From Minisyncoccia bacterium (GTDB lineage: Bacteria; Patescibacteriota; Minisyncoccia; Phycocordibacterales; UBA9973), in contig JBGATK010000001.1 of assembly GCA_044229265.1 (NCBI GenBank), forward strand, positions 35,776 through 99,775: 64,000 bases of DNA, written 5' to 3'. The notes under the pieces are model-generated. The model searched no databases, was not told where the DNA came from, and saw only the letters and a list, made by a program, of their open reading frames with translations. Each line of letters begins with the position of its first letter. The stretch's first letter is position 1. The position numbers were made by a program, and so were the translations under genes. Of this stretch, positions 6,352-46,999 are shown in pieces.

Positions 6352-6891
6352 TTATTGTTTAGGATTAATAGCAACTAATTCTACTTCAAAAATCAAAGTA
6401 GAATTAGCAGGAATAGAACCAATAGCACGATTACCATAACCTTTCTCAGGAGAAATAGTAAGAGTTTTCTTTTCACCTACTTTCATACCTACGAGACCTT
6501 CATCCCAACCTTGTATTACTTGACCTGCACCCAAGGTAAATACAAATGGCTCTACATGAGAAAACTTTGGATCCACATTGGAATCAAAGACTACTCCATT
6601 TTGCAGACGACCAGTATAATTCATGACTAACACATCCCCGGGTTTTGAAACTACTCCAGTATTTGTACTTGTATTTGCACTAGTATTTGTATTTGCACTA
6701 ACTTCATCCTCGGACTTACCTTCTAACTCATTGTTTGTTGTATTTTGCACGTTTGTTTCTATTGTATTATCTTCTAAAATGTCAGTATTTGAATTTGATC
6801 TGGTACTAAGATAAATTCCAATACCAACTACGACTATAACTATAATTATATATACCCAATTTGCACCGTTTTTTGGTTGATTGTTTTCCAT
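6352..6891 (-). CDS. FKBP-type peptidyl-prolyl cis-trans isomerase, membrane-anchored with a low-complexity N/T/S linker
   Basis: 179 aa; GDVLVMNYTGRLQNGVVFDS...FTLGAGQVIQGWDEGLVGMKVGEKKTL...ANSTLIFEVELV is a canonical FKBP fold sequence. Confidence 0.85.
   Translation of the reverse strand: MENNQPKNGANWVYIIIVIVVVGIGIYLSTRSNSNTDILEDNTIETNVQNTTNNELEGKSEDEVSANTNTSANTSTNTGVVSKPGDVLVMNYTGRLQNGVVFDSNVDPKFSHVEPFVFTLGAGQVIQGWDEGLVGMKVGEKKTLTISPEKGYGNRAIGSIPANSTLIFEVELVAINPKQ
6656..6702. repeat. Short tandem ~18-bp repeat inside the FKBP gene, encoding the NTSANTSTNT linker
   Basis: agtatttgtacttgtatttgcact agtatttgtatttgcact read directly. Confidence 0.4.
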
Positions 6892-14968: not shown

Positions 14969-16180
14969 TTAACCTATATTATTTAGAACAGAATAAAGTG
15001 GAGTTATCATAGACAATGCAAAAAAACCAACTCCTGTTCCAATTAAAATCATCAAAATTGGCTCAATAATAGTGGAGAGATTTTTAGTTTTATTTTCAAT
15101 TTCATTTTCATAAAAAATAGCAATTTCTGTGAGCATATCAGCTAATTTACCTGTTTCTTCGCCAACTTGAACCATCTCGGTCATCATAATAGGGTAAAGT
15201 TTTGGATTATCTTCAAAAACTTTTGCAAAAGGTGCTCCTTTTTCTACGGATTTTACTGCATCCTCCATGACTTTTTTATAATAAACATTTTGCACAACAT
15301 CACGAGTAATCTCTATGGCCCGTGTTATAGACACACCAGATAAAATAAGTGAAGAAAGAGTGCGCGCTGTCCGAGCAGTATTGAGCTCGCGTGCCATTGT
15401 ACCAAAAACTGGTAATTTTAAAACTACAAAATCTATATATTTTTGACTAGCTTTTGCAGTAAAAAGAAAATATAATCCTACTCCAAATAAAATTGCTCCT
15501 AGTAAAGTAAGTATTAAATTATTTGATATGAAATCACCAAGCCAAAGCACAAAACGTGTAGTTGGAGGTAATTTTACGCCAAGTTCTTTGAAAGTATTAG
15601 CCAGTGTAGGAACCACGAAAGCAAACATTAATATACCTATTATTACCATAGCGGAAATAATTACCCCTGGGTACATCATCGCGCCTTTAATTTTTTTTGT
15701 AAGAGAATTAGATTTTTCTAAATTCATGCCTATCTCAGTAAGAGCTCCAGCTAAATTACCGGACTCTTCCCCAGCACGAACCATGGAAACAAAAAGTGGC
15801 GAAAAAGCTTTTGGTTTTTTAGCGAGCCCACTCGATAATGTTCCGCCATTATTAATTTCATCGATAAGACTAGCAATTATTTTTTTAAAAAACTCTTTTG
15901 GAGTTTGTTTTTCTAAAACCGAAAGAGCTCTACCTGCTGACAAGCCAGCTTTTAACATGCCTGCTAAATTTTTGGTAAATAAAATTAAATCCTGCATTTT
16001 CACCCCACCAAAAATGCCATCAAAAGAAATATTCCAAGAATTCTTTTTTTGTTCTTCAATTAGAATTGGTATTGAACCTTTTTCTCTAAAATCACGGGCC
16101 ACTGCAAAGCGATCCACAGCTTCTGTAGTGCCTTCTATTATATTTCCCTCTTTATTTTTTATTTTATATTTAAAAAGCAT
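14969..16180 (-). CDS. pilC: Type IV pilus assembly platform protein PilC (GspF family)
   Basis: 403 aa; two repeated GspF domains with three transmembrane segments; N-terminus MLFKYKIKNKEGNIIEG... as in PilC. Confidence 0.9.
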   Translation of the reverse strand: MLFKYKIKNKEGNIIEGTTEAVDRFAVARDFREKGSIPILIEEQKKNSWNISFDGIFGGVKMQDLILFTKNLAGMLKAGLSAGRALSVLEKQTPKEFFKKIIASLIDEINNGGTLSSGLAKKPKAFSPLFVSMVRAGEESGNLAGALTEIGMNLEKSNSLTKKIKGAMMYPGVIISAMVIIGILMFAFVVPTLANTFKELGVKLPPTTRFVLWLGDFISNNLILTLLGAILFGVGLYFLFTAKASQKYIDFVVLKLPVFGTMARELNTARTARTLSSLILSGVSITRAIEITRDVVQNVYYKKVMEDAVKSVEKGAPFAKVFEDNPKLYPIMMTEMVQVGEETGKLADMLTEIAIFYENEIENKTKNLSTIIEPILMILIGTGVGFFALSMITPLYSVLNNIG

Positions 16181-18002: not shown

Positions 18003-20309
18003 TTAATATAAAGTTCGCCAAGCATATGTATTTGCAGCATCTTTGGCGCATACTTCTACATTATCTTTTACACCTGTAGCACCCTGTACCACAAAAAACA
18101 TACCCCGAACACTGGCTGTGCATGATGGTTTAGCAGAATTATTATTATTTACGATAACTCCTCCATTAAAAGTATTTTGTGTTATTGCTGTATTACCAAA
18201 AACCATAGAATTACTTGCACTGACTATAGCTCCATTACCAATTGCTGTAGCATTAGTTAAACCACCAGTAGAAACATCCGCACTATAACCAATAGCTGTA
18301 TTGTTTGTTCCAGTAGTATTTGTTAGTAAGGAAAAATAACCAAAAGCTGTGTTATTTGAACCTGTTGTTGCATTTAAAGAACCATTACCAAATGCAGAAT
18401 TATTATTACCAGCAGTATTTAATTGCAAAGCACCTTTTCCAAAAGCACTATTTCTATCGCCATCTAAATTATTTAAAAGAGCTTGATATCCAAAAGCGGA
18501 ATTTTCGAAACCACCTGTATTTACAGCAAGAGCAGTAGAACCCACAGCTGTATTTCTATACCCTACAGTATTGTCTCTAAGAGCCCATTGTCCAAAACCA
18601 GAGTTAGCATCACCTGTAGTATTTGATTGTAAAACTTGATATCCAACAGCAGTATTATTTGCCAATCCAGAATTATTTCCACCGAGAGCATTAATACCTA
18701 CAGCCAAATTTGTTCCTAATTGGTTAGTGCCTTTACCTACAATTACACTACTGATAGATATATTACCCGAAGTATCTACTCTCATTCTCTCAACCCCACT
18801 CGTAGTTATTGCAAAAATATCAGCTCCTGGAGAAAATGTTCCCGTATTTGTATCACCTAAAAATGTCCGAGTTGGAGCACTTGCTGTGCCTAGTGTGGTA
18901 GCTACTGCTCCAGCCACTTCAAACTTTGAAACAAAAGTAGTTCCTACAGGTTGCCCCACACCAACACTTCCATTAACTGGATTTATTACGACATCTCCTT
19001 TCAAAGAACCATTGCTTGTAGAATCTAAAATTAAATCTCCATTTGCAGTAGAATTTCCATTTATTGTAAAACCAGCCATTTGCAATGCTTGTGTAGCTGT
19101 ATGATTTCCTAAATTATCAGCACCGCCACATGTTTGCCATTCAAAAGTTGCACCTGTAGTTTCGTAAGTTAAACAAAATTCATCAGTAGCAGTACCAGAA
19201 ATACTAACCTTTGATACAGTAACAGCGCCATTTAATATTTTTGTATTTGAAACAGCATTAACTGCTATTTTGGGATCATCTACAGCAAGAGCTGCTATTT
19301 TTCCATTGGTTATAGACAAAGCATCGACAGTCCAAACTGTGCCAGTACCAGAAACAGTAATGTCTCCTTTATCACCATCTGTAATACCACCATTAGCTGT
19401 AAAAGTAATATTACTATTATTTACATCATGAGTAATGGTAATTCCTGAACCGGCTATCAAACCTTTATATTCCAAACTAAGACCAGTATCATCTAAACCT
19501 AGAACCTTATTAGCACCTCCAAAAACTGCAGCTATATCAGTTTTAGATACACCATCAACAGCTATTTTGTCGCTAGTTATAGAATCTGCAGCTAATTCTG
19601 TATTACCAACCACTCCTGCATCTATATTCCAAACACTACCACTAGAGGAAACAGTGATGTCGCCTTTGTCGCCATCTGTTAGAGAATTTAACACTTGCCA
19701 AGATCCGTCGCCTCGCAAATAATTTGTAACGCCAGGAGTGCCTGTAATAGCAGATGAAAATAATGGTATTCTATTTGTATTAATTTCTTGCACAGGACCA
19801 GCTGAATTACCTAAATTCGCTAAAAATCTATTAGCTCCAACATTTTGAATTTTTGAATAGGTAACAGCCAAAGGATCTATAGTCCAAGTAGCTCCACTAC
19901 CAGAAACAGTAATGTCGCCTTTATCACCATCGGAAACACCTCCGGAACTAACATCCCAAGTTAAATTACCTGCACCATCAGTTTTTAAATATCCATTTGC
20001 AGTTTGGTTTGCAGGAAAAGTATATGTTTCTGTATTTAGAGTAAGTGTTTTGCCTGGAAAGATAGTTACATTACCTTTTAAATCTGAAGTTCCGTCTACT
20101 ACTAATACTGTACCAGAGCGTAGTCCACTCCATGCTACTATTCCTCCGTCTTTTGCTTGAGTAGTGGAGCTTGTGTTTATTGGGGGTTCGGTGTTGCCAA
20201 GAGGTGGAATACCGGACGGTGGAACCCAAGTAGCAAAAGCTTGTAAGCTTATACTAAAAAGTGATATCGCTAAAAATGATTTAAGAAAAATTTTCTTTTT
20301 TAAAGACAT
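18003..20309 (-). CDS. Large secreted surface protein with internal repeats (DGDKGDITVSGSG..WTID three times); paralogue of the next gene
   Basis: 768 aa; signal peptide ...SLQAFA|TWVPP; the N-terminal ~130 aa are near-identical to the 20348-22021 product; G/N/T/S-rich beta-solenoid-like composition. Confidence 0.7.
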   Translation of the reverse strand: MSLKKKIFLKSFLAISLFSISLQAFATWVPPSGIPPLGNTEPPINTSSTTQAKDGGIVAWSGLRSGTVLVVDGTSDLKGNVTIFPGKTLTLNTETYTFPANQTANGYLKTDGAGNLTWDVSSGGVSDGDKGDITVSGSGATWTIDPLAVTYSKIQNVGANRFLANLGNSAGPVQEINTNRIPLFSSAITGTPGVTNYLRGDGSWQVLNSLTDGDKGDITVSSSGSVWNIDAGVVGNTELAADSITSDKIAVDGVSKTDIAAVFGGANKVLGLDDTGLSLEYKGLIAGSGITITHDVNNSNITFTANGGITDGDKGDITVSGTGTVWTVDALSITNGKIAALAVDDPKIAVNAVSNTKILNGAVTVSKVSISGTATDEFCLTYETTGATFEWQTCGGADNLGNHTATQALQMAGFTINGNSTANGDLILDSTSNGSLKGDVVINPVNGSVGVGQPVGTTFVSKFEVAGAVATTLGTASAPTRTFLGDTNTGTFSPGADIFAITTSGVERMRVDTSGNISISSVIVGKGTNQLGTNLAVGINALGGNNSGLANNTAVGYQVLQSNTTGDANSGFGQWALRDNTVGYRNTAVGSTALAVNTGGFENSAFGYQALLNNLDGDRNSAFGKGALQLNTAGNNNSAFGNGSLNATTGSNNTAFGYFSLLTNTTGTNNTAIGYSADVSTGGLTNATAIGNGAIVSASNSMVFGNTAITQNTFNGGVIVNNNNSAKPSCTASVRGMFFVVQGATGVKDNVEVCAKDAANTYAWRTLY
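19874..20198. repeat. ~325-bp near-identical tract, copy 1 (within the 5' part of the 768-aa gene)
   Basis: Matches 21583-21907 with about 4 mismatches when read directly. The ORF track shows identical 82-aa shadow ORFs in both places. Confidence 0.85.
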
Positions 20310-20347
20310 ATAAATATTATAACAATAAAAAACTACTAACGAAAGAT

Positions 20348-22021
20348 TTATTTTATCTTTGCTTCGAGGATTTCTAAACGCCTACGCAAATCTTCATTTT
20401 CTTTTTTTAGTTCATTAATTTGAGCTTCATGTTTTTGAGTTTCTTTAAGTAGCAATACTGACAACATTGGATATTTAACAGAATCTGGGATTAGTAAATC
20501 TCTTGTGCTACCGGCAATTACATTCTTCTCTGGAATATAGTCCACCAAAGCAGGCACAACTTTATCTACATCTTCGGCTATAAGACCAAAATACCTAAGT
20601 CCATCACTTTTTGAAGTATAAGAAACTGGTTTCAAATCATAAATTTTTGAAGTATCTATTTCTAAATCCGCGACATCTTTTTTATATCTTATAGAAGAAG
20701 TTGAGCGAAGTAATTTACTAGTACCTGTATCATAATACGCATTTGCAGCATTTGCTGTCGTTCCAATACTTCCAAATGAAGGATTGGTTAGTGTTTTCCC
20801 CGATAGAGTTTGAGTGCCTGTTGTATCTACTGGGGTAAAAGTAGTCCACCCTGTACCTGAATTAACTCTACGTAAAGCATCATTATTACCAGGGCATTTC
20901 TCTACAAGAATACCTGTAGTTTCGGCAGCCAACATACAACCTCCGGTGACGCTTGATACTCCAGTACCTCCTTTACCTACAGGTAAAATACCCGCAACCT
21001 CAGTCGTAGCTAGGTCAACTTGAGCTGTAGTTCCACCACCAGTAGCAAATATGTAATTATTAGCAGTTATAACACCAGCACCAGTTGGACCCAACGTACC
21101 TGAGGTCAGTAGTGCTACTGTATTTGTACCTGTTGTAACACTCGCAAATGATACTGACCCTCCACCTCCAGATGTTCCACAAGAAAAAGTATTTGTAGCA
21201 ATAACATAATTTAAATGATTTCCTCCAGAATCAGGACAATTTAAAAGTGCTTTTGCTTCCCAAGCAGAACCATTTGAAACAAGTAGGGTATCGTCAACAG
21301 CACTTGAAAGGCCTGTGCCACCTTTGGCAAAAGGCACGACATTGTTATAAGTAGTAGAGAGTCCGGTAGAAGTAACGTCCCCAGTTAAGTTTCCCATAGT
21401 AGGTGTTCCCCAAGTATTATCGCCTCGCAAAAAAGTAGTAGAATCTTTTGTGCCAGTAGCTGAGAGCTTTGTAGTCGCTACTATAGTAGCATCAGTAATT
21501 TTTATATTAGTTATTGCATTGTCTGCAATTTTTGAATTTCCTACTGCATTGTCTACAATCTTTCCTGTTGTAATAGTAAGTGGGTCTATAGTCCAAGTAG
21601 CTCCACTGCCAGTAACAGTAATGTCGCCTTTATCACCATCAGAAACACCTCCGGAACTAACATCCCAAGTTAAATTTCCTGCACCATCAGTTTTTAAATA
21701 TCCATTTGCAGTTTGGTTTGCAGGAAAAGTATATGTTTCTGTATTTAGAGTAAGTGTTTTGCCTGGAAAGATAGTTACATTACCTTTTAAATCTGAAGTT
21801 CCGTCTACTACTAATACTGTACCAGAGCGTAGTCCACTCCATGCTACTATTCCTCCGTCTTTTGCTTGAGTAGTGGAGCTTGTGTTTATTGGGGGTTCGG
21901 TGTTGCCTCCTGTTGGAGGAGTGCCTATTGGAGGCACCCACACTGCAAATGCTTGCAAAGCTATTGCAAAGGCTGTGAGGACGAAAACAGATTGAAGAAA
22001 AATTTTTGTTTTATAAGTCAT
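20348..22021 (-). CDS. Tail-fibre-like surface protein with a C-terminal intramolecular chaperone auto-processing (peptidase S74-like) domain
   Basis: 557 aa; signal peptide ...LQAFA|VWVPP; C-terminus RSTSSIRYKKDVADLEIDTSKIYDLKPVSYTSKSDGLRYFGLIAEDVDKVVPALV...YPMLSVLLLKETQKHEAQINELKKENEDLRRRLEILE matches the endosialidase/tail-fibre chaperone domain pattern. Confidence 0.7.
   Translation of the reverse strand: MTYKTKIFLQSVFVLTAFAIALQAFAVWVPPIGTPPTGGNTEPPINTSSTTQAKDGGIVAWSGLRSGTVLVVDGTSDLKGNVTIFPGKTLTLNTETYTFPANQTANGYLKTDGAGNLTWDVSSGGVSDGDKGDITVTGSGATWTIDPLTITTGKIVDNAVGNSKIADNAITNIKITDATIVATTKLSATGTKDSTTFLRGDNTWGTPTMGNLTGDVTSTGLSTTYNNVVPFAKGGTGLSSAVDDTLLVSNGSAWEAKALLNCPDSGGNHLNYVIATNTFSCGTSGGGGSVSFASVTTGTNTVALLTSGTLGPTGAGVITANNYIFATGGGTTAQVDLATTEVAGILPVGKGGTGVSSVTGGCMLAAETTGILVEKCPGNNDALRRVNSGTGWTTFTPVDTTGTQTLSGKTLTNPSFGSIGTTANAANAYYDTGTSKLLRSTSSIRYKKDVADLEIDTSKIYDLKPVSYTSKSDGLRYFGLIAEDVDKVVPALVDYIPEKNVIAGSTRDLLIPDSVKYPMLSVLLLKETQKHEAQINELKKENEDLRRRLEILEAKIK
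21583..21907. repeat. ~325-bp near-identical tract, copy 2 (within the 5' part of the 557-aa gene)
   Basis: See copy 1. Confidence 0.85.
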
Positions 22022-27075: not shown

Positions 27076-27104
27076 TTGAAAATTCTAAAAATTTAATGTA
27101 AGAT
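27076..27104 (+). promoter_or_regulatory. Sigma70-type promoter TTGAAA-N17-TAAGAT, 9 nt upstream of the tig ATG
   Basis: Hexamers and spacer read directly; there is no Shine-Dalgarno between the -10 and the ATG. Confidence 0.45.
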
Positions 27105-27113
27105 ACGAGAACT

Positions 27114-28172
27114 ATGACCATACAAATAAAAATAAACAAATTACCAAAAAGCGCAGTAGAGATTGAGGGCGAACTAGAAGCTAATGCCTTTGAAAGCTAT
27201 TTCGACAAAGCAGTAAAGCACTTGGGCGAACATTTTGAATTAGATGGTTTCCGCAAAGGCAAAGTGCCTACTGATGTAATGCTATCCAATATTCCCGAAA
27301 TTCGTATTTTAGAAGAAATGGCACAGTTAGCTATAAGCGAGCATTACCCAAAAGCCATAGCCGAGCAAAAACTAGACATTATTTCACAACCAGAAATTTC
27401 TATCACTAAACTCGCTCGTAATAATCCACTAAATTTTAAAATTAAAGTTGCTGTTCTACCAGAATTTTCTTTGCCAGATTATAAATCTATCGCTAAGAAA
27501 ACTTTAGCTAGTTTAACTGAAGCTGATAAATCTACTGAAATTACAGAAGCTGAAGTAGAGCAAACTATTATGGATATTCGTAAATCTCGCGCTCCTAAAG
27601 TAAAAACAGAAGATTTAGCAAATAACACACCAAACTCTGAAGTTAAAGAAGAATTACCGGACTTTAATGATGAATTCGTGCAAGCTCTTGGACCGTTTGA
27701 AAACATAGCTGACTTCACAGAAAAGTTAAAAGAAAATTTAAAACTTGAAAAAACAAATCTAGTTCGTGAAAAAACTCGCCTAAAAATCATGGAAGCCATA
27801 ATAGAGGCTACCACTATTGAAGTACCAGAAATAATAGTTGCATTAGAAACTGAAAAAATACTTTATAGAATGGAGTCCGACATTACCCAAATGGGTATGA
27901 AGTTCGAGGACTATTTAAAACATTTAAATAAAACCAAAGAAGATCTTAAAAAAGAATTTGAAAAAGATGCTGAGAAAAAAGCTATCCTTTCCCTCATCTT
28001 AAACCAAATAGCTAAAGTCGAAAACCTAGAACCAAATCAAGAAGATGTAGAAAAAGAAGTTTCCCATATCATGGAGCACTACAAAGACGCGGACAAATCT
28101 CGCGCCGAAGCTTATGCTCATAATATGCTAACAAATGAAAAGATTTTCCAATTCTTGGAAGAGCAGAAATAA
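27114..28172 (+). CDS. tig: Trigger factor (short form lacking the central PPIase domain)
   Basis: 352 aa; N-terminal ribosome-binding domain with GFRKGKVP; the sequence then passes directly into a C-terminal-arm-like region; clpP lies downstream. Confidence 0.8.
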   Translation: MTIQIKINKLPKSAVEIEGELEANAFESYFDKAVKHLGEHFELDGFRKGKVPTDVMLSNIPEIRILEEMAQLAISEHYPKAIAEQKLDIISQPEISITKLARNNPLNFKIKVAVLPEFSLPDYKSIAKKTLASLTEADKSTEITEAEVEQTIMDIRKSRAPKVKTEDLANNTPNSEVKEELPDFNDEFVQALGPFENIADFTEKLKENLKLEKTNLVREKTRLKIMEAIIEATTIEVPEIIVALETEKILYRMESDITQMGMKFEDYLKHLNKTKEDLKKEFEKDAEKKAILSLILNQIAKVENLEPNQEDVEKEVSHIMEHYKDADKSRAEAYAHNMLTNEKIFQFLEEQK

Positions 28173-28174
28173 AA
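28140..28174. repeat. Direct repeat copy 1 (tig 3' end, aagattttccaattcttggaagagcagaaataaaa)
   Basis: Repeated at 29507-29539 with a single-base indel. Confidence 0.8.
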
Positions 28175-28256
28175 TCTCAAACTTCACTCTTGCTTTAAAG
28201 CAGGCAAAACTTTGACAAACTATTCTGAAAGAGTTAGATTTTAAGAAAATTAAAAA

Positions 28257-28898
28257 ATGAATAAAGAAAAAATGATTGAACTGGCCCACGCTAATCGCGT
28301 GCTCCAAATTAATTTTACCGATCAAATTACTACCAGCCAAGGAGATTTAGTCCCTATTTATTTTGATTGGCGAAACAGTGGAGAATCTCCAGAACTTATG
28401 AATTTGATCTCTGACGCAATTTACGAAAAAATGTGGAGACTGGAGGTTGATGTGATTGTTGGTGTAGCAAACGGAGGTTCTTTGCATGCTGACTGGTTGG
28501 CTTCAAGGATTAACCACAAGATCGCGTTCGTAAGACCTAAGGCCGAGCCGAAGGGACACGGATTTAGAAACGTGATCGAAGGAGCTATGGTGAAAGATCG
28601 TAAAGTTTTCGTAATAGAAGACGTACTGACCACAGGCACCTCGCTCGAACAAGCTATTTGGGCTCTTAAAAAAGAAGGGGCTATAATTGTTAAGGCATGT
28701 GCTATATACGCTCGTAATAGAAATATTATTGACGTATTTAATAATAAAGGCATAAAATTGGATTTATTATTAGACTTGAATGATTTTTCTGAATTATTTA
28801 ACAGTATTTTTAGTCCAGAAGATCACAAGGCTTTCAATGCTTGGATATACAAGCAAATGTCAGAAGGCATGAAGCCAAGACCTAGGCTTCATAGTTAA
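28257..28898 (+). CDS. pyrE: Phosphoribosyltransferase, orotate phosphoribosyltransferase-like
   Basis: 213 aa; ...SQGDLVPIYFDWRNSG... (PRPP/orotate loop-like) and VFVIEDVLTTGTS (PRPP-binding motif). Confidence 0.55.
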   Translation: MNKEKMIELAHANRVLQINFTDQITTSQGDLVPIYFDWRNSGESPELMNLISDAIYEKMWRLEVDVIVGVANGGSLHADWLASRINHKIAFVRPKAEPKGHGFRNVIEGAMVKDRKVFVIEDVLTTGTSLEQAIWALKKEGAIIVKACAIYARNRNIIDVFNNKGIKLDLLLDLNDFSELFNSIFSPEDHKAFNAWIYKQMSEGMKPRPRLHS

Positions 28899-28925
28899 AT
28901 CTCTATTATTCTCTTTGAACAATTA

Positions 28926-28954
28926 AGCGGAAATTCGTATTTCCGCTTTTTTTA
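28926..28954 (+). terminator. Intrinsic terminator
   Basis: agcggaaattcgtatttccgct followed by ttttttt. Confidence 0.6.
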
Positions 28955-28955
28955 T

Positions 28956-29516
28956 TTAGGTAAATAATATATAGTTAAAACTTAAATTTATTAGAAAATG
29001 AGAAACTGAAATCAAATAAATATTTCTAAATTTCAAGAAATGCTGACCCCAGAAATAACCTGCTATAAAAGTTAACCCGGCAAAAATAACTCCGGTAGTA
29101 GTCCAAGTATATGGAGCAATTAAATGGAAAAGTACGAAAATGGCTATGCTTATCCATAATGCTTTCTTTTCACCAAATTTTTCAAAATAATTTATTATTA
29201 AACTTCTAAATAATATTTCTTGAAAAAATGTGATTGCAAATAATGGTAAAATAGGGTCTTTATCTAGCACCCATTCCGGTAAATTAATGAATTTAGTATA
29301 AATTGCCAGTTGCACTGAAACAAAAACAAGAATATTAAATAACAAAACTTGCCACCAACCAGCAGTAAATTTATGTGGAGCAAATCCAAACTTTTTCCAA
29401 TTAATATTTTTAACAAAAATAATTAAAAAAATAAAAACCAAACCACTTAAACATATAAAGATATTCTCTGCAAAAGTCATACTGGTCATACTAGCATACA
29501 CAAAAAAGATTTTCAA
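28956..29516 (-). CDS. CPBP-family intramembrane metalloprotease (CAAX protease/Abi)
   Basis: 186 aa polytopic; motifs FFQEILFRS (EExxxR), FVLFHL (FxxxH), VSHFLINL (HxxxN). The track start corresponds to TTG; an ATG lies 9 codons downstream. Confidence 0.7.
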   Translation of the reverse strand: MKIFFVYASMTSMTFAENIFICLSGLVFIFLIIFVKNINWKKFGFAPHKFTAGWWQVLLFNILVFVSVQLAIYTKFINLPEWVLDKDPILPLFAITFFQEILFRSLIINYFEKFGEKKALWISIAIFVLFHLIAPYTWTTTGVIFAGLTFIAGYFWGQHFLKFRNIYLISVSHFLINLSFNYILFT

Positions 29517-29539
29517 TTCTTGGAAGAGCAGAAATAAAA
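29507..29539. repeat. Direct repeat copy 2 of the tig 3' end
   Basis: See 28140-28174. Confidence 0.8.
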
Positions 29540-29566
29540 AAAGCGCTCAATCATTTATAAGCGCTG
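29533..29566 (-). terminator. Terminator overlapping the coaE stop codon
   Basis: agcgct-N12-agcgct stem followed on the minus strand by ttttttt; the TAA stop lies in the loop. Confidence 0.45.
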
Positions 29567-30170
29567 TTTTGGAAACTATTTTTTTTATTTGATTATAAAG
29601 TTCTTGAACTCTTTTTGGCATTTCTTTGAGCTCACATTCTGTGTTTATTACCAGAGTAGTTTCAGACTCTAAATCAGGGCGATCCTTTTGAGAAGACATC
29701 CTGCTCTCAATATCAGTTAAGCTCATATTGCGATAAAGCTCTAACCTTCTCACCCTCTCAACTTTGTCGCAAACTGTAGAAATAACACCAAGCTCAAATT
29801 TACTTTGGCTATTTGTTTCATAAAGCATTGCCATCTCTACAATGCAAATATGGTCTTTAGAATAAAATGCCACAATTTCTTTAATCCTTTGCCAAACCTT
29901 TGGGTGAATAAAAAGCTCAAGTTTGGTTTTTTTACCGATATCATTAAAAATGATTTCAGCGACAAGTTTTGTTTGTAAAATCCCATCCCAAAAAACTTCT
30001 TTGCCTAAAATTTGGGAAATTATTCTTTGGTTTTGTACCTCCGACATTATTTGTTTAGCTATGTCGTCAGTATTAATTGTGTGAATATCACAATAATGGG
30101 CTAATAGTGTGGCCACGGTTGACTTTGCTGAACCTATCGGCCCAGTCAAAGCAAAAGCGTTTAATTCCAT
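29547..30170 (-). CDS. coaE: Dephospho-CoA kinase
   Basis: 207 aa; ALTGPIGSAKSTV P-loop at the N-terminus, typical of CoaE. Confidence 0.8.
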   Translation of the reverse strand: MELNAFALTGPIGSAKSTVATLLAHYCDIHTINTDDIAKQIMSEVQNQRIISQILGKEVFWDGILQTKLVAEIIFNDIGKKTKLELFIHPKVWQRIKEIVAFYSKDHICIVEMAMLYETNSQSKFELGVISTVCDKVERVRRLELYRNMSLTDIESRMSSQKDRPDLESETTLVINTECELKEMPKRVQELYNQIKKIVSKTALIND

Positions 30171-30247: not shown

Positions 30248-30276
30248 TTGAAAATTTTAAGATTAAAGTATAAGAT
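30248..30276 (+). promoter_or_regulatory. Sigma70-type promoter TTGAAA-N17-TAAGAT, 6 nt upstream of the clpP ATG (leaderless geometry)
   Basis: Same hexamers as the tig promoter; the expected transcription start coincides with the ATG. Confidence 0.45.
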
Positions 30277-30282
30277 AAACTT

Positions 30283-30876
30283 ATGTTAATACCAACAGTT
30301 ATAGAAAAATCACAATTTGGCGAAAGGGCGTATGATATATACTCTCGCCTGCTTCGCGAACGCATAGTATTTATGGCAGGACCCATAGACGACAATACTG
30401 CAAATATCGTCATAGCTCAGCTACTCTTCCTCGAGAGCGAAGACCCAAAGAAAGATATTTTCCTTTATATCAATTCCCCAGGTGGCTCTGTCACTAGCAC
30501 TATGGCTATCGTAGACACTATGAACCATATTCGCCCTGATGTTTCGACTGTATGCGTAGGACTCGCTGCTTCGGGTGGAGCTATCATACTCTCTGCAGGT
30601 AAAAAAGGTAAACGCATGATATTGCCAAATGCAGAAGTCATGATTCATCAACCGCTCGGTGGCGCTGAAGGTCAAGCTACAGATATTGCCATCTCTGCAA
30701 AACACATTCTAAAAACTAAAGACAATTTGAATAAACTACTAGCAAAAAATACAGGAAAATCCCTTTCTCAAATAGAAAAGGATGTAGAGAGAGACTTTTT
30801 TATGGATGCAGTTGAAGCCAAAGCTTACGGTATAGTAGATGACCTACTAACTAAGAGCAAAGCTCCAACAAAATAA
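30283..30876 (+). CDS. clpP: ATP-dependent Clp protease proteolytic subunit
   Basis: 197 aa; catalytic Ser in GLAASGGA, plus His and Asp context (MIHQPLGG). Confidence 0.95.
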
Positions 30877-42150: not shown

Positions 42151-43098
42151 ATGAAAAACGAGTTATCTAACCTAAAAAGACAATTTCTAGAATACCTGGA
42201 AATAGAAAAAGGTTCTGCGTTGCGCACTATAGAGAATTATGACCATTATTTAACGAAGATTTTTGAAAATGGGGGTTTTGAAAAAGTAGATGATATCACT
42301 CCTGAAGCAATTCGTGAATATCGCCTCAAATTAAATCGCCAAATTAGTGGCAATAACAAAAAATCTGGCAAAACCACTAGCAAAAAAACTCAAAATTACT
42401 ACATGATAGCTCTGCGCATGTTTTTAAAATACTTAGCCAAGCGAGATATCACTGCTATGCCAGCCGATAAAATAGAACTTGCAAAGATTCCCGAACGTTC
42501 ACTCGACTTAATAACTCCCGCTGAACTCTCGCGCCTACTAAACGCACCTCTGCTTCGTCAAGACTTCGCAGGGCAAGCCAAAAATATAGACATAAAAACA
42601 CTTAGAGATAAAGCAATATTGGAATTACTTTTTTCTACAGGACTTCGTGTTTCCGAACTATGCTCACTGACAAATGACATAGATATAAATACCGAAGAGT
42701 TTGCAATTCGTGGAAAAGGCGGAAAGGTTCGCGTGGTGTTCGTATCCGATGAAGCACGCAGTGCTGTAAAAGCTTACCAAAATGCTCGCAAAGACATGAA
42801 TGATGCGATGTTTGTGCAAGTAGGCAAAGAAATAAAAAGCAAAGAACCTACCCCGCTGACCCGCCGATCAATCGAAAGAATTGTAAAAAGTTATGCTACT
42901 AAAGCTGGTATTTATAAAAAAGTTACCCCGCACGTACTGCGACACTCATTTGCCACTGATCTACTTAGTAATGGTGCGGATATTCGCAGTGTGCAAATAA
43001 TGCTCGGCCACGCTAGTATTTCAACTACTCAAGTTTACACTCACCTTACCGACAAACAACTTCGTGATACACATAAAAAATTCCACGGAAAAAGATAA
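42151..43098 (+). CDS. Tyrosine site-specific recombinase XerC/XerD-like
   Basis: 315 aa; N-terminal SAM-like domain; catalytic region ...RDKAILELLFSTGLRVSEL...HVLRHSFATDLLSNGADIRSVQIMLGHASISTTQVYTH. Confidence 0.85.
   Translation: MKNELSNLKRQFLEYLEIEKGSALRTIENYDHYLTKIFENGGFEKVDDITPEAIREYRLKLNRQISGNNKKSGKTTSKKTQNYYMIALRMFLKYLAKRDITAMPADKIELAKIPERSLDLITPAELSRLLNAPLLRQDFAGQAKNIDIKTLRDKAILELLFSTGLRVSELCSLTNDIDINTEEFAIRGKGGKVRVVFVSDEARSAVKAYQNARKDMNDAMFVQVGKEIKSKEPTPLTRRSIERIVKSYATKAGIYKKVTPHVLRHSFATDLLSNGADIRSVQIMLGHASISTTQVYTHLTDKQLRDTHKKFHGKR
42547..42573 (-). repeat. Degenerate palindromic element copy inside the xerC-like CDS (cctctgc-ttcgtcaagacttc-gcaggg)
   Basis: Core ttcgtcaagacttc against ttcgccaaagcttc at 35370; translates in-frame as PLLRQDFAGQA in a variable loop between the two Xer motifs. 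Confidence 0.4.
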
Positions 43099-43234: not shown

Positions 43235-44020
43235 ATGAAAATCATCAGCTGGAACACAAATGGCCTACGCGCTACTATAAAGCAAGGACACTTTGAACCC
43301 TTATTCAAAAAATACAAACCAGACATAGTGTGTTTCCAAGAAACTAAATCTGAAGAAATTCAAATTCCTGAAAAATACAGAAATTTTCTAGGTTATCATT
43401 CTTATTTCTCACATTCCAAAGAAAGAAAGGGCTACAGCGGCACCGCTATTTATTCTAAAGAAAAACCAATAGAAGTTTTTGAAGGCATGGAGAAAATTCT
43501 CGGAAAAAGTGCAAAAATTTTCGATACCGAAGGGCGTCTCCTGACTGCTCGCTATAAAGATTTTACTCTTATCACTGGATACTATCCAAATGGGGGCCAA
43601 GGTCCACACCGCCTCGAATACAAATTAAAATTTTATGATATGTTTTTGAAATTTATTTTAAAACTCCGCGCTGCTGGCGAAAATGTTATTTTCTGCGGAG
43701 ATGTAAACACTGCGCACGAAGCCATCGACCTCGCCCGCCCAAAAGCCAACGAAGAAAATACTGGCTTCCTCCCCATCGAGCGCGCATGGATTACAAAAGT
43801 CATCAAAAATAATTTCCTCGATGTCTGGCGAGAAATGAACCCAAATAAAAAAGATGTCTATACATACTGGGATCAAAAGACTGCTTCGAGGGAACGCAAT
43901 GTCGGCTGGCGTATAGATTACTTTTTTGCAGACAAGCCCCTGATGAAAAAAATAAAATCTGCTGGAATGCTTAGCGACTACATGGGCTCAGACCACTGCC
44001 CTATCTTGCTTGAACTATAA
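43235..44020 (+). CDS. xth: Exodeoxyribonuclease III / AP endonuclease
   Basis: 261 aa; MKIISWNTNGLRA...DIVCFQETK...SDHCPI are ExoIII/EEP motifs. Confidence 0.9.
   Translation: MKIISWNTNGLRATIKQGHFEPLFKKYKPDIVCFQETKSEEIQIPEKYRNFLGYHSYFSHSKERKGYSGTAIYSKEKPIEVFEGMEKILGKSAKIFDTEGRLLTARYKDFTLITGYYPNGGQGPHRLEYKLKFYDMFLKFILKLRAAGENVIFCGDVNTAHEAIDLARPKANEENTGFLPIERAWITKVIKNNFLDVWREMNPNKKDVYTYWDQKTASRERNVGWRIDYFFADKPLMKKIKSAGMLSDYMGSDHCPILLEL
43940..44004. repeat. xth 3' end segment that is duplicated at 45337-45401
   Basis: 65-bp identical match read directly. Confidence 0.8.
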
Positions 44021-44040
44021 AAATAGCTATACTAAAGAAT

Positions 44041-44931
44041 ATGTACAATAACATAGAGAATCCAAATTCCAACAAACAAGTAAGTAGCCAAGTAATGGAA
44101 TCGACAGAAATAGATTTAGATGAAATAAAAATATCTAAATTAAAATCACAAAAGGAAGACATTTTAAATTCAAATAATTTTTCATCTAAGAAAGAAATCT
44201 TGGGTGGCAATATTGGTGACGCAACTTTTGTATCCATAGAAGGTGACGGTAATGGAGTATTTAAACCACACACTAAATATAATTATGACCCAGAAAGAAA
44301 AATGAATTTTATCAATAGCGAGCGAGCAGCATATTTATTTAGTCAGTTTTTAGGTTTTGACATTGTTCCACTCACAATAGTAAAAAATGTAGAATATCGA
44401 AATACTGAGGATAATGATAATGATGTCATCACCCAAATAGGAAGCTTGCAAGAATTTATAGAAAATGCCGAGGAAGGTCGTGAATGCAACATAGCCGAAA
44501 TTCCTAAATTAGAAATTTTAAAACTTCATATTTTTGATATTATTATTGCCAACGACGATAGGCATGGAGCAAATTTTTTAATTAAAAACAATAAAATTTA
44601 TGCTATTGATAACGGATTAGCCCTAAAAAAAACAGACCTTCTTGATATAAATATTGAAAGTAATAGACCGTTAGTAAATAATGACTACTTAATAAAAATT
44701 TCACAAAATGATGAATTACCTGCTGAAATTACTAATAAAATAAAAGAATTACTAAAATGGGAAAATGGTGTAAAAATTTTAAAGCAACAAATAGAAGAGT
44801 TATTAGGGAAAGAAGTAGCAGAAATATCTATAGAAAGATTAAAAATCTTATCAGATTGCATCAATGAAGAAAATAAATTTGACATAAATAATTTTAAACA
44901 ATCAATTCGTGAATTAAAAAGGAAGTCTTAA
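44041..44931 (+). CDS. PI3/PI4-kinase-like atypical kinase domain protein
   Basis: 296 aa; IFDIIIANDDRHGANFLIKNNKIYAIDNGLAL reproduces the catalytic-loop DRHxxN and the activation-loop IDNG(L) spacing typical of type II PI4-kinase-like catalytic domains. Confidence 0.5.
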   Translation: MYNNIENPNSNKQVSSQVMESTEIDLDEIKISKLKSQKEDILNSNNFSSKKEILGGNIGDATFVSIEGDGNGVFKPHTKYNYDPERKMNFINSERAAYLFSQFLGFDIVPLTIVKNVEYRNTEDNDNDVITQIGSLQEFIENAEEGRECNIAEIPKLEILKLHIFDIIIANDDRHGANFLIKNNKIYAIDNGLALKKTDLLDINIESNRPLVNNDYLIKISQNDELPAEITNKIKELLKWENGVKILKQQIEELLGKEVAEISIERLKILSDCINEENKFDINNFKQSIRELKRKS

Positions 44932-44956
44932 ATAGACACACTAACTAATAAAAAAT

Positions 44957-45217
44957 ATGAAATACGTAGAAATATATAAATTGCAAAATAATGGGGATCA
45001 AAAGGTAGTGTTAAAATGCTTTTTACGTGGAGAAAATGTAGAGTTTGAAGGTGAAGGAGAACAATTAGCAAAAAACTTAATCACTGATGGAATCAAGAAC
45101 TATCTTGAAGAATCCATTGAAGCCTTGTATCCCAAAGATGGCTTAAAATTTCTACAAAACATGATGTATAATTTCACTTCTGGATATTTAAATGCATCTG
45201 ATGTGCTAGAACAATAG
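44957..45217 (+). CDS. Small hypothetical protein
   Basis: 86 aa ORF; no family recognised. Confidence 0.35.
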   Translation: MKYVEIYKLQNNGDQKVVLKCFLRGENVEFEGEGEQLAKNLITDGIKNYLEESIEALYPKDGLKFLQNMMYNFTSGYLNASDVLEQ

Positions 45218-45233
45218 AAACCCAGAAACTCAA

Positions 45234-45326
45234 ATCCTAGCGACAAAAAATAAACTTTTGCTATAATATAAATATGCTTAAATCAACAAGGCTCGATGAA
45301 CTCGCCGACGGTATCTTTGCTATTTT
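45234..45326. repeat. Duplicate of the MscS-3'/DUF1211-5' junction (copy of 46332-46424)
   Basis: 93 bp with one mismatch; includes the TATAAT and ATG of the DUF1211 gene. Confidence 0.8.
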
Positions 45327-45420
45327 AATGACAACTCTGATGAAAAAAATAAAATCTGCTGGAATGCTTAGCGACTACATGGGCTCAGACCACTGCCCTA
45401 TAAGTCTTGAATTAAAATAA
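45274..45420 (+). pseudogene. Chimeric remnant ORF: the first ~22 codons of the DUF1211 gene fused to the last ~26 codons of xth
   Basis: Own translation MLKSTRLDELADGIFAILMTTLMKKIKSAGMLSDYMGSDHCPISLELK; the junction lies in a shared ctgatgaaaaaaataaaatc microhomology. Confidence 0.55.
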
Positions 45421-45429
45421 AATTTAACA

Positions 45430-45478
45430 TTTAGAATTTTTGTGTTATACCCGTACACTTAAATTTGTAAAAAATTAA
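45430..45478 (+). promoter_or_regulatory. Imperfect 17-bp inverted repeat with a 12-nt spacer upstream of the MscS-like gene (candidate operator)
   Basis: tatacccgtacacttaa - atttgtaaaaaa - ttaagtgttggggtata. Confidence 0.25.
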
Positions 45479-45491
45479 GTGTTGGGGTATA

Positions 45492-46352
45492 TTGAAAAAT
45501 ATGGATATTTTTGAATTTTTTGGACAATTTAATACCCACCAAACTACAATACTTTGGGTTTTGTTTGGACTTCTTATCATAGAAGTTTATTTACGCATAG
45601 CCAAAAAGAAACTCAAAGTAAAATATAAATACAATAAAGATAAAGTCGAAGATTTTGAAGACATGGAAAAGATCTGGATTGAGTATTACAAAAAGAATCA
45701 AAATTTATTCGTCATTCGTGTTATCAGTATTTTTATCGCCATAGCGGTAATATTGGTGAGTTTTGATGTAAATGCTTTTAATTTGCTCGCAGTAGTAGCC
45801 GGTGCGACGATAATTATTTTCCGTGATTATATATTTTCTTTTATTACATTTTTCTATATAATTTCTATCTATAAAATCGGTGATGACGTAAAAACAGATA
45901 CAATCTTAGGAGAAATACTACGCATCAATCCCCTGTATGTAGCCATAGCCGGTAAAGATGAAGATGGTGAATACAATGGCAAATTACATCGTGTTCCAAA
46001 TAGTATTTTCATTACTCAAAAAATAGAAGCCCAAGAACTAAAAGCAGATGATTATCGTAGAGTAATGATAACTGCAGTATTTTCAACTGAAAAATTCATG
46101 GATGGTTTTAGTATATGGTTAGACAAAGTAAGAAATTTCTTAGAAGAAACATTGCCAGCTCGCACACTAGAACGTGTAGGACATTTTAAAGGATATCTAG
46201 GTGTAAAATATAAAATTAATTTTGATTATAATGATAAAGGTGATACAGTGGTGCGCATTTCATTCATTGCTCGCCCACCAAAAAATATAGAACTAAAAGA
46301 AAAAATCATAGAATATATTGAAACTCTACGTAATCCTAGCGACAAAAAATAA
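45492..46352 (+). CDS. Mechanosensitive ion channel, MscS family
   Basis: 286 aa; transmembrane helices, then IYKIGDDVKTDTILGEILRINPLYVAIAGKDEDGEYNGKLHRVPNSIF matches the MscS beta-domain pattern (V.IG...G.V..I.LR.T..R..DG....IPNS). Confidence 0.7.
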   Translation: MKNMDIFEFFGQFNTHQTTILWVLFGLLIIEVYLRIAKKKLKVKYKYNKDKVEDFEDMEKIWIEYYKKNQNLFVIRVISIFIAIAVILVSFDVNAFNLLAVVAGATIIIFRDYIFSFITFFYIISIYKIGDDVKTDTILGEILRINPLYVAIAGKDEDGEYNGKLHRVPNSIFITQKIEAQELKADDYRRVMITAVFSTEKFMDGFSIWLDKVRNFLEETLPARTLERVGHFKGYLGVKYKINFDYNDKGDTVVRISFIARPPKNIELKEKIIEYIETLRNPSDKK

Positions 46353-46424
46353 ACTTTTGCTATAATATAAATATGCTCAAATCAACAAGGCTCGATGAAC
46401 TCGCCGACGGTATCTTTGCTATTG
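46332..46424. repeat. Original MscS-3'/DUF1211-5' junction (duplicated at 45234-45326)
   Basis: See 45234-45326. Confidence 0.8.
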
Positions 46425-46999
46425 TGATGACGATACTGGTTTTTGAAATAAAAATTCCAGATGCTCTCGGAGAAATTTCAAATTTTGAACTTTGGAAACA
46501 CTTGGTAAACCTTATTCCTTCTATGCTTTCTTATATACTTTCTTTTGCTTTACTATTTACTTACTGGCGAGCACACCACTTCTTTATATCTGTATATGCA
46601 AAAAATATCGACACTGCCCTTATGAATATAAATGGTTTCTTTTTCATGATCATTGCTCTCATCCCCTTTTCAGCCAGCGTTCTTGGTCAGCACAGTAATA
46701 ATGAACTTTCTATAATTCTTTTTGGTAGCAATATCGTAATCATTGGTCTTACTCTTTATTTTATGCGTAGATATGTACTATACTCACCTCATATTAAAAA
46801 TCCTGAAATAACTCATCGTGAACTTTTTGGATCCACTGTTCGAACCATGGTGCCAGTGATATTCGCGCTCATAGCTATATCACTTTCTTTTTGGAATACG
46901 ACTTTATCACTCGCTCTTTTTACACTAGCGGTAATATTTAATTTACTACCACAAAGCACAACACTAGCCGAAAAATTCTTCCATCATGAAGAAGAATAA
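46373..46999 (+). CDS. DUF1211/TMEM175-like potassium channel family membrane protein
   Basis: 208 aa; RLDELADGIFAIVMTILVFEI is the DUF1211 signature (RxxxFSDGVFAIAxTLLVLE); 6 predicted transmembrane segments; TATAAT sits 8 nt before the ATG. Confidence 0.75.
   Translation: MLKSTRLDELADGIFAIVMTILVFEIKIPDALGEISNFELWKHLVNLIPSMLSYILSFALLFTYWRAHHFFISVYAKNIDTALMNINGFFFMIIALIPFSASVLGQHSNNELSIILFGSNIVIIGLTLYFMRRYVLYSPHIKNPEITHRELFGSTVRTMVPVIFALIAISLSFWNTTLSLALFTLAVIFNLLPQSTTLAEKFFHHEEE

Follow-up and report, generated by a model that had tools for sequence, protein, structure and literature searches.

The 64,000-nt stretch of DNA analysed here (the window; Minisyncoccia bacterium assembly GCA_044229265.1, contig JBGATK010000001.1, positions 35,776–99,775 of the forward strand) carries the 3′ end of the trigger factor gene tig twice, once as the functional end of the gene and again about 1.36 kb downstream as a displaced, non-coding copy (Table 1; all coordinates are those of the window unless a relative's locus is named). 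Between the two copies lie a gene for a divergent phosphoribosyltransferase (PRT) on the plus strand and a gene for a CPBP-type intramembrane protease (CPBP) on the minus strand, while the second copy abuts the terminator of coaE, beyond which clpP begins. As set out below, the duplication is young, it sits in an interval whose gene content varies widely among relatives, and the contig ends of an independent assembly point to a coexisting allele in which tig runs directly into coaE. Genes were called from Pfam and TIGR profile matches of the open reading frames (ORFs) of the window; promoters and terminators were scanned for, and Rfam and PADLOC were searched. The G+C content of the window is 34.6%, and the relatives of its tig protein are labelled Patescibacteria, Paceibacterota or Nomurabacteria in the source databases. 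Loci and contigs of these relatives, and of the independent assembly, are numbered L001 to L063 as compared here.

Table 1. Features of the interval from tig to clpP, with the evidence for each.
Feature	Position	Strand	Evidence or remark
tig (trigger factor, 352 aa)	27114–28172	+	Pfam Trigger_N 1.5e-29, Trigger_C 1.8e-24
Repeat copy 1 (functional tig 3′ end, TAA, AA)	28138–28174	+	direct sequence reading, repeat search
tig–PRT spacer with predicted PRT promoter	28175–28256	+	TTGACA 28212–28217, 17 nt, TAGATT 28235–28240; promoter scan
PRT (divergent pyrE-/orotate-PRT-like type I phosphoribosyltransferase, 213 aa)	28257–28898	+	Pfam Pribosyltran 1.8e-14
PRT intrinsic terminator (10-bp stem and T-run)	28925–28948 (feature span 28925–28956)	+	terminator scan
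CPBP / Rce1-like intramembrane protease gene	28956–29489	-	Pfam Rce1-like 7.4e-11
Predicted CPBP promoter	29488–29516	-	promoter scan
Repeat copy 2 (displaced, non-coding tig 3′ end)	29503–29539	+	repeat search, edge test
coaE terminator hairpin AGCGCT-N12-AGCGCT	29542–29565	-	minus-strand scan; T-run 29541–29530 on minus strand
coaE (dephospho-CoA kinase)	29547–30170	-	Pfam CoaE 1.7e-25; TIGR00152 86.3 bits (cut-off 65.55 passed)
clpP promoter (TTGAAA-17-TAAGAT) and clpP	30248–30876 (gene 30283–30876)	+	right border of the variable slot

Copy 1, AAAAGATTTTCCAATTCTTGGAAGAGCAGAAATAAAA, comprises the last 11 codons of tig (..EKIFQFLEEQK), the stop codon TAA (28170–28172) and two further A residues; it holds the palindrome TTCCAA-TTC-TTGGAA and encodes a C-terminus, NEKIFQFLExQ, that is kept in 120 relatives. 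Copy 2, AAAAAGATTTTC-AATTCTTGGAAGAGCAGAAATAAAA, differs from copy 1 by a single 1-nt indel (CC versus C) and by no substitution over about 36 nt, the exact core of both copies being 26 nt long (CAATTC...TAAAA). A first-pass annotation of this DNA had placed a 33-bp repeat of the tig end here, and the repeat is indeed there, its length having been slightly under-counted. A 25-mer core with up to three mismatches occurs at only two sites, the copies themselves, on both strands of the 64 kb, and none of 100 dinucleotide shuffles gave any such match. To the left and right of the copies the adjoining 80 nt are 20–26% identical, i.e. random (local-alignment p 0.75 and 0.24), and no residual older homology was found beyond the repeat edges. 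The AT-rich composition and the origin of the window in a metagenome-assembled genome might raise the suspicion of chance similarity, or of a mis-assembly that joined contigs at the repeat. The shuffles and the indel, which marks two distinct loci, speak against both, as does an independent k=31 assembly (Logan, sample SRR28480387), three contigs of which agree with the window without a single mismatch over 14.3 kb and cover the locus end to end with 30-nt overlaps; an artefact has next to no probability left and is effectively refuted.

The sequence of the repeat also dates it. Both copies carry GAGCAGAAA, the codons reading GAG CAG AAA TAA AA, in place of the GGACAAAAA of L002 (GGA CAA AAA), the AATCAAAAA of L062 (AAT CAA AAA) and the ACTCAAAAT of L004 (ACT CAA AAT); L005 has ACT CAA TAA. 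Since the split of the window from L002 about 10 substitutions would be estimated at neutral sites over some 36 nt (pS ~0.4), versus none seen. Because nothing has changed between the copies and both hold window-specific codons, the duplication is later than the window/L002 split. The repeat is thus young, and the only junction new to this lineage is that between the CPBP 5′ region and copy 2, so that one illegitimate join is enough to account for it. The tig|PRT junction on the left, TAAAATCTCAAA, is the same in L002.

To place the repeat in its genomic setting, we surveyed the interval between tig and clpP in 32 species-representative genomes (40-odd loci, Paceibacteria only). The order tig, clpP, RNase Y holds in all 32, with inorganic pyrophosphatase upstream in most, and the tig–clpP gap ranges from 16 nt to 6.8 kb. 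Nine loci (L004, L063, L008, L010, L012, L015, L016, L030 and L034) have gaps of just 16–67 nt, which bears out the earlier statement that the two genes are commonly adjacent and supplies the genomes with tig directly before clpP that it had proposed to look for. Relatives whose tig is 73% or more identical to that of the window show at least six different slot contents. The gap is empty in L004 (tig 87% identical at the amino acid level) and L063 (73%), holds a minus-strand class II aminoacyl-tRNA synthetase (aaRS)-like gene in L005 (86%), PRT plus an aaRS-like gene in L002 (93%), and in L062 (84%) a RAYT-like Y1 transposase gene, accompanied by REP-like hairpins, together with an ORF of unknown function. 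A variable module thus holds up: the contents differ even between close relatives, and the gap, with the stop codon of tig as its left limit and the promoter of clpP as its right, is a hotspot of gene exchange. The 43 ORFs in 19 occupied slots of relatives include RsmE (resident in a distant subclade), YafQ/RelB pairs, an MmeI-type enzyme, DUF3800, SocA and HTH proteins, and none of the 43 encodes an integrase, resolvase or DDE transposase. Neither CPBP nor coaE lies in the tig–clpP gap of these closest relatives, and coaE is missing from the slot of every relative examined; coaE, found there only in this lineage, is thus as much slot cargo as PRT and CPBP, and is no more a normal neighbour of tig than they are. 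Homology between the window and L002 runs unbroken through tig, the spacer, PRT and its terminator, stops at 28956 and resumes at about 30245. Along the region the window compares with L002, L004 and L005 as a mosaic, with 58–100% identity in 150-nt windows, which shows that recombination among these lineages is frequent.

Several of the slot genes recur. A class II aaRS-core paralogue of 278–280 aa, convergent with tig, lies in the slots of L002 (7220–8062), L005 (6986–7822) and L009 (9464–10270) and has weak AsnRS/AsnA-like matches far below cut-offs. RAYT-like Y1 (IS200-like) genes of 220–223 aa, 79% identical to one another, lie in the slots of L062 and L040. On either side of the L062 gene lie REP-like palindromes of its own, GTGCAACATC(C/G)GATGTTGCAC (6073–6115 and 6811–6840), the first hairpin beginning 5 nt past the tig stop; those on either side of the L040 gene are GTTCGACAT/ATGTCGAAC, with a four-fold tandem array (893–931 and 1629–1695). 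A tblastn search with both RAYT-like proteins gave no match in the 64 kb of the window.

The two genes between the repeat copies have different histories. PRT matches TIGR00336 (pyrE) at 88 bits, below the cut-off of 106.8, and is a near-orphan, a search of 5.8 billion proteins returning only three clusters (100, 88 and 73% identical), all directly after tig; it stands at the same tig junction in L002 and L040. Its synonymous divergence (dS) from L002 is 0.58, beside 0.63 for tig, 0.65 for RNase Y, 0.69 for NusA and 0.72 for clpP, and with a dN/dS of 0.11 it is a gene under purifying selection that has stood behind tig since the window/L002 split. CPBP has a G+C content of 26.6% versus 34.6% for the window, and its best non-self homologue is 68% identical and found in unrelated gene contexts, which fits acquisition from a more distant Nomurabacteria lineage; in this slot it is lineage-specific cargo. 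The same database holds no CPBP orthologue above 68%, although relatives of tig at 84–93% sit in it. The pair of PRT and CPBP was found at no other place. Since PRT is old at this site and the repeat is young, the two genes were not delivered recently as one cassette, contrary to what the first-pass annotation had suggested. That each gene of the module has its own terminator held for PRT; for CPBP the minus-strand scan found no separate one.

Parts of the PRT region are unusually well conserved. The window and L002 share 95% identity over the 84-nt tig–PRT spacer (28173–28256), against a difference of about 40% at synonymous sites; over the final 300 nt of PRT and the terminator (28650–28956) they are 97–100% identical, reaching 100% over 28899–28956, versus only 70–80% over 28380–28620. 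The high identity at 28173–28256 and 28650–28956 may reflect either strong promoter and terminator constraint or recent recombination over a tract whose end coincides exactly with the gene-content breakpoint at 28956. Rfam gave only sub-threshold matches (E >=0.1) for an RNA element in the conserved spacer or terminator. PADLOC matched PRT to ShosT over 51 residues of the PRPP loop only (24 bits), and coaE to SspC by its P-loop; these matches were judged generic and not a link to a defence system.

An allele in which tig is followed directly by coaE, with a single copy of the repeat, was the form that the first-pass annotation had proposed to seek, and the contig ends of the independent assembly point to its presence in the same sample. 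Contig L001 ends at 28174, L007 spans 28145–29543 (1399 nt, the module) and L006 starts at 29514; a 26-nt exact repeat alone cannot branch a k=31 graph. To interpret these limits, we simulated the compacted k=31 graph under five scenarios, taking as the empty junction 28174 joined to 29540 (..GATTTTCCAATTCTTGGAAGAGCAGAAATAAAAAAAGCGCTC..) and as the junction of a circular form of the module GATTTTCAATTC..AAATAAAA|TCTCAAAC, also written ..AAGATTTTCAATTCTTGGAAGAGCAGAAATAAAATCTCAAAC... The window alone gave one unbroken unitig, and the window plus the tig–coaE allele gave exactly the three pieces observed. Adding a CC variant of copy 2 instead gave breaks at 28167 and 29514, adding the circle junction gave breaks at 28178 and 29539, and adding both the tig–coaE allele and the circle cut the locus into five pieces, with 28178 and 29539 as additional break points, none of which fits; a CC variant of copy 2 is thereby ruled out as the cause of the contig breaks. 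The k-mers of a circle would have shifted the ends to 28178, 28149–29539 and 29510, which was not observed, a result that excludes only circles above the assembler's k-mer threshold. From the contig ends and the simulation we infer that k-mers of an uninterrupted tig–coaE junction are present in SRR28480387, and some cells in the sample seem to be without PRT and CPBP. The empty allele is an exact hybrid of both repeat copies. Because the contig breaks require about 60 nt of identity between the alleles on each side, the alleles are variants of one species, and the empty one may be either the parental form or the product of a deletion across the 26-nt identical core.

The displaced tig end lies where it could now serve the genes on either side. 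The minus strand of copy 2 reads ..TTCCAAGAATTGAAAATCTTTTTTGTGTATGCTAGTATGACCAGTATG and places the predicted CPBP -35 box, TTGAAA (29516–29511), inside the copy, followed by 17 nt, a TG-extended -10 box TAGTAT (29493–29488) and 7 nt to an ATG at 29480. This ATG is likely the true CPBP start (MTFAENIF..), the N-terminus read from it aligning with the MTPAENIF of homologues. The predicted promoter has the geometry of those of tig (27076) and clpP (30248), i.e. TTGAAAAT, 17 nt, TAAGAT and 6–9 nt to ATG, which suggests that the mRNAs of tig, clpP and CPBP may be leaderless or nearly so. The same layout, with TAAGAT or TAGTAT after 17 nt and 6–9 nt to ATG, recurs at 27076–27116, 30248–30285, 29516–29478 (minus strand) and 62839 (minus strand), and TTGAAAAT itself occurs 23 times in the window. 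As the reverse complement of copy 1 reads TTGGAAAAT, it is the 1-nt difference in copy 2 that makes a consensus -35 box. This change may have been selected after the event or may be a mark of the join itself; if the latter, GATTTTCCAA of tig would have paired with a -35 box native to CPBP (reverse complement GATTTTCAA). On the other side, the A-run that closes copy 2 forms, as reverse complement, the T-tract of the coaE terminator, whose hairpin is predicted to end tig as well in the empty allele. Copy 2 would thus contribute both to a promoter, as the CPBP -35 box, and to a terminator, as the T-tract behind coaE, roles that are predictions from sequence.

Displaced tig ends were also sought elsewhere, by comparing the tig end of each locus with its own slot at the nucleotide and peptide levels. 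In L033 (Yonathbacteria) a minus-strand ORF of 178 aa and unknown function is followed by a tig copy of about 63 nt that is 76% identical, 24 nt of it exactly (50 bits versus at most 22 bits for controls in the nucleotide search; peptide E = 1.7e-6). L040, the third PRT cluster, is a 1748-nt contig (PRT 73% identical at the amino acid level) that begins with a tig 3′ end and continues with PRT, a terminator, REP-like hairpins, the RAYT-like gene, a four-fold ATGTCGAACAAAA array and a second tig piece, KEIEKEVNNIMEHYKDADR. The first and last 30-mers of this contig overlap by 3 nt in tig coordinates, exactly what a collapsed 57-nt repeat would give, and we infer such an exact repeat within a longer imperfect duplication; the tig remnant of L040 is at least 84 nt long. 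No other tig remnant was found by nucleotide or peptide search in the remaining 20 occupied slots, L002 being among those without one. The left edge of the remnant corresponds to a point about 33 nt before the tig stop in the window, about 63 nt before it in L033 and 130 nt or more before it in L040, and the cargo differs in each case. Since edges and cargo vary and L002 has no remnant, the recurrence of displaced tig ends is better explained by events that were anchored by homology and otherwise illegitimate than by a recombinase that crosses over at a fixed site. At L033 9950–10034 the end of the decayed remnant forms one arm of a hairpin with a 12-bp stem, TTCCAGTTTCTGCCCCCCAGAAACTGGAA, which is terminator-like on the minus strand and is a second case of a displaced gene end reused.

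The reading that we favour, at slightly better than an even chance, is that the repeat is the recombination scar of a hybrid slot, made by an exchange that was anchored by homology and closed by one illegitimate join. The species would have held at least two versions of the gap, tig–PRT–CPBP, with PRT the old resident, and tig–terminator–coaE, and the window would be a hybrid of both, formed by recent recombination. On one side the exchange would have been ordinary homologous recombination, in tig or in clpP and beyond; on the other, a single illegitimate join would have linked the CPBP promoter region to a point about 36 nt before the tig stop. The join probably used the microhomology AAAAGATTTTC(C)AA, which on the opposite strand reads as a -35 box of the TTGAAAAT type. 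Such an event would count as homology-facilitated illegitimate recombination, which here is equivalent to a short fragment entering by a Campbell-type single crossover, and its product would have intact tig, PRT and CPBP, followed by the displaced tig end still joined to its own terminator and coaE, with the tig–coaE allele still segregating in the population. This history explains why just one junction is new and why the repeat is sharp-edged and perfectly identical; it also accounts for a scar lying exactly between two sets of cargo, for the persistence of tig–coaE and for the variable remnants elsewhere. The left junction is ancestral and the right one new, and the candidate microhomology AAAAGATTTTC overlaps the consensus -35 box; the parental haplotypes were not recovered. 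Of the proposal that the module was inserted at the tig end by site-specific or homologous recombination, the recombination junction therefore stands and a role for homology is plausible, whereas site-specific attachment does not hold up. A dedicated attachment site at the tig 3′ end finds no support: neither the module nor the 43 slot ORFs include a recombinase, the edges vary, the contig ends indicate no circle, and searches of viral and mobile contigs with the tig end, PRT and CPBP gave no match.

A number of points weigh against the favoured reading. A parental tig–PRT–CPBP arrangement without a remnant was not found, a JGI metagenome scan for relatives of coaE gave at most 38% identity, and the evidence for the empty allele comes from contig ends rather than from reads, a library chimera being another possible source. 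The direction of the event may have been either insertion into tig–coaE or deletion from the filled form. A microhomology of 11 nt is long for an illegitimate join, and the whole 36 nt may instead be derived from tig, with a later 1-nt deletion. Homology-facilitated illegitimate recombination, moreover, usually deletes recipient DNA instead of duplicating it. Finally, a tig remnant occurs in two of the three PRT lineages versus one of 20 other occupied slots (one-sided Fisher p ~0.03, the lineages being non-independent), a hint that the remnant may be tied to the original arrival of PRT.

This last association is the one point that favours a much older origin, in which at least 130 nt of the tig 3′ end was duplicated when PRT arrived, the remnant was then shortened by further insertions, of CPBP here and of RAYT in L040, and gene conversion from the functional tig kept it nearly identical. 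In both PRT lineages that have it, the remnant lies to the right of PRT and one extra gene, and the inferred 57-nt exact patch within the longer imperfect remnant of L040 is a conversion-like pattern. A 36-nt remnant with non-homologous flanks would nevertheless be a very poor substrate for conversion, no decayed homology extends past the repeat edges, L002 is without a remnant, and the copies show no substitution where some 10 would be estimated, all of which makes an ancient duplication highly unlikely. Another reading is a replication template switch within a single tig–PRT–CPBP–coaE lineage, followed by a repeat-mediated deletion that gave tig–coaE: the nascent strand would have left the CPBP promoter at GATTTTC for the tig end, 1.36 kb distant, where it copied some 26–36 nt before returning at the A-run. 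Both edges offer microhomology (AAAAGATTTTC on the left, the A-run on the right), the patch is sharp-edged and perfectly identical, no foreign donor is necessary, and the empty allele is the product expected of a deletion between the repeats, a process documented as a source of small variable segments (PMC2884548). It would, however, require two precise switches over 1.36 kb and a deletion that reached a frequency visible in a metagenome assembly, and it leaves unexplained both the remnants of L033 and L040 and why coaE, which is in the slot of no relative, sits exactly past the scar; we regard it as unlikely.

The remaining alternative keeps the idea of an attachment site and holds that the tig 3′ end (TTCCAA-TTC-TTGGAA) is a true att site, at which a recombinase encoded elsewhere, such as the Xer-type enzyme at 42151–43098 or a RAYT-type Y1 transposase, moves cassettes that lack a recombinase of their own, in the manner of CIMEs, IMEX or the H47 island. 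The layout resembles attL and attR with the target gene kept intact, the empty allele corresponds exactly to a hybrid of copies 1 and 2, tig 3′ duplications occur in three lineages, RAYT-like genes and REP-like hairpins stand right after tig in L062 and beside the remnant in L040, the Xer-type gene lies 12.6 kb from the repeat, and the H47 island is a precedent for a repeat-flanked island that uses host functions (PMC3191183). Against this, the edges of the remnants differ from lineage to lineage, L002 has PRT at the same junction and no second copy, PRT is old at the site while the repeat is young, and the circle-junction k-mers do not fit the contig ends. None of the 43 slot ORFs encodes a recombinase, the window holds no RAYT gene, and the core, judged by eye only, shows no dif-like pattern (28 bp, with a 6-bp spacer between XerC and XerD arms). 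A search for a phage or mobile attP with a degenerate pattern coding for NEKIFQFLE, with PRT and with CPBP gave no match in 2.9 million viral and mobile contigs. Mobilisation in trans is in our view quite unlikely here, and very unlikely in its wider form, in which the tig 3′ end would be a recurrent docking site of Patescibacteria where host Xer- or RAYT-type enzymes insert and excise recombinase-less gene sets, with excision ongoing; were it true, this would be a cassette system built on the end of a housekeeping gene.

Elsewhere in the window, a long minus-strand operon includes a T2SS-F/PilC-type gene (14969–16180) and possibly encodes type IV pilus or DNA-uptake machinery, which would bear on transformation-driven exchange at the slot. 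A 300-nt direct repeat of 97% identity (19861–20160 and 21570–21869), accompanied by weaker 95-nt copies over 19297–21869, lies inside consecutive large minus-strand ORFs (18003–20309 and 20348–22021) for paralogous repeat-bearing proteins, and contig L001 begins at 21878, just past the second 300-nt copy. The Xer-type tyrosine recombinase gene matches the XerD, XerC and XerA models at about 225–238 bits, passing only the cut-off of the archaeal XerA model, and is followed by genes with internal paralogous repeats. Direct repeats of 101–122 nt with 85–90% identity (43940–46453) join neighbouring plus-strand genes there, namely 43235–44020 (Exo_endo_phos), 44041–44931 (PI3/PI4-kinase-like) and 45501–46352 (unknown function), and suggest local gene duplication.

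The tig locus reveals no new mechanism; its interest is as a base-resolved example of accessory gene turnover in the very small genomes of uncultured Patescibacteria. The content of the tig–clpP interval changes between close relatives without mobile-element genes, and the junction scar together with the coexisting empty allele catches this turnover in a natural population, with the displaced gene end predicted to be reused as promoter box and terminator tract. Contig break points in public k-mer assemblies can, moreover, expose presence/absence polymorphism.

The locus is not a transposon or insertion sequence (IS) of the usual kind, since the module holds no transposase, no inverted repeat joins its ends and the duplication is about 36 nt versus 2–15 bp. 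Integrase islands, integrative and conjugative elements (ICEs) and prophages at the 3′ ends of tRNA and protein genes, and the integrase-less CIMEs, have the target end duplicated on both sides with the gene left intact. Here too the direct repeats include the 3′ end of an intact target, and sites with a single copy of the core occur, both as the inferred tig–coaE allele and as adjacent tig and clpP in relatives. Unlike such elements, 28175–29502 holds the PRT and CPBP genes only, with no tyrosine or serine recombinase there and no integrase in related slots; the crossover position is not fixed, as the differing left edges and the lack of a second copy in L002 attest; the contig ends give no sign of a circular form abundant enough to pass the k-mer threshold of the assembler; and PRT is as old as its flanks. 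The 13-kb H47 island of Escherichia coli has extensive repeats and has been shown experimentally to excise and integrate independently of RecA (Azpiroz et al., 2011; PMC3191183). Like it, the present segment is small, has no recombination genes of its own and is flanked by imperfect direct repeats, excision of the island leaving hybrid sites within segments of identity; unlike it, the segment is known from sequence alone, and the comparative data speak against a fixed site. Homology-facilitated illegitimate recombination, reportedly observed in natural transformation, likewise links non-homologous genes through one homologous anchor and one microhomology join, its described outcomes usually deleting recipient DNA, whereas here 36 nt were duplicated.

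The closest likeness is to the small variable segments described by Touzain et al. (2010, Genome Biol 11:R45; PMC2884548), which have short direct repeats at their borders and can arise by deletion between them. As in these, a strain-variable segment, here of 1.3 kb, lies between backbone genes and direct repeats of less than 40 bp, with a hybrid repeat in the inferred empty allele. The differences are that the repeat at tig is the coding 3′ end of a housekeeping gene, apparently reused as a promoter and terminator element, and that the empty allele comes from the assembly graph of an uncultured Patescibacterium and not from finished genomes. Transfer hotspots between core genes have reportedly been described as intervals of gene turnover that often hold defence or toxin–antitoxin genes and often no mobile-element genes. 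The tig–clpP interval, documented for Paceibacteria only and in 40-odd loci, likewise holds different genes in related genomes. The locus is thus a small variable segment flanked by direct repeats within a hotspot bounded by core genes, a known type of feature found here in a Patescibacterium.

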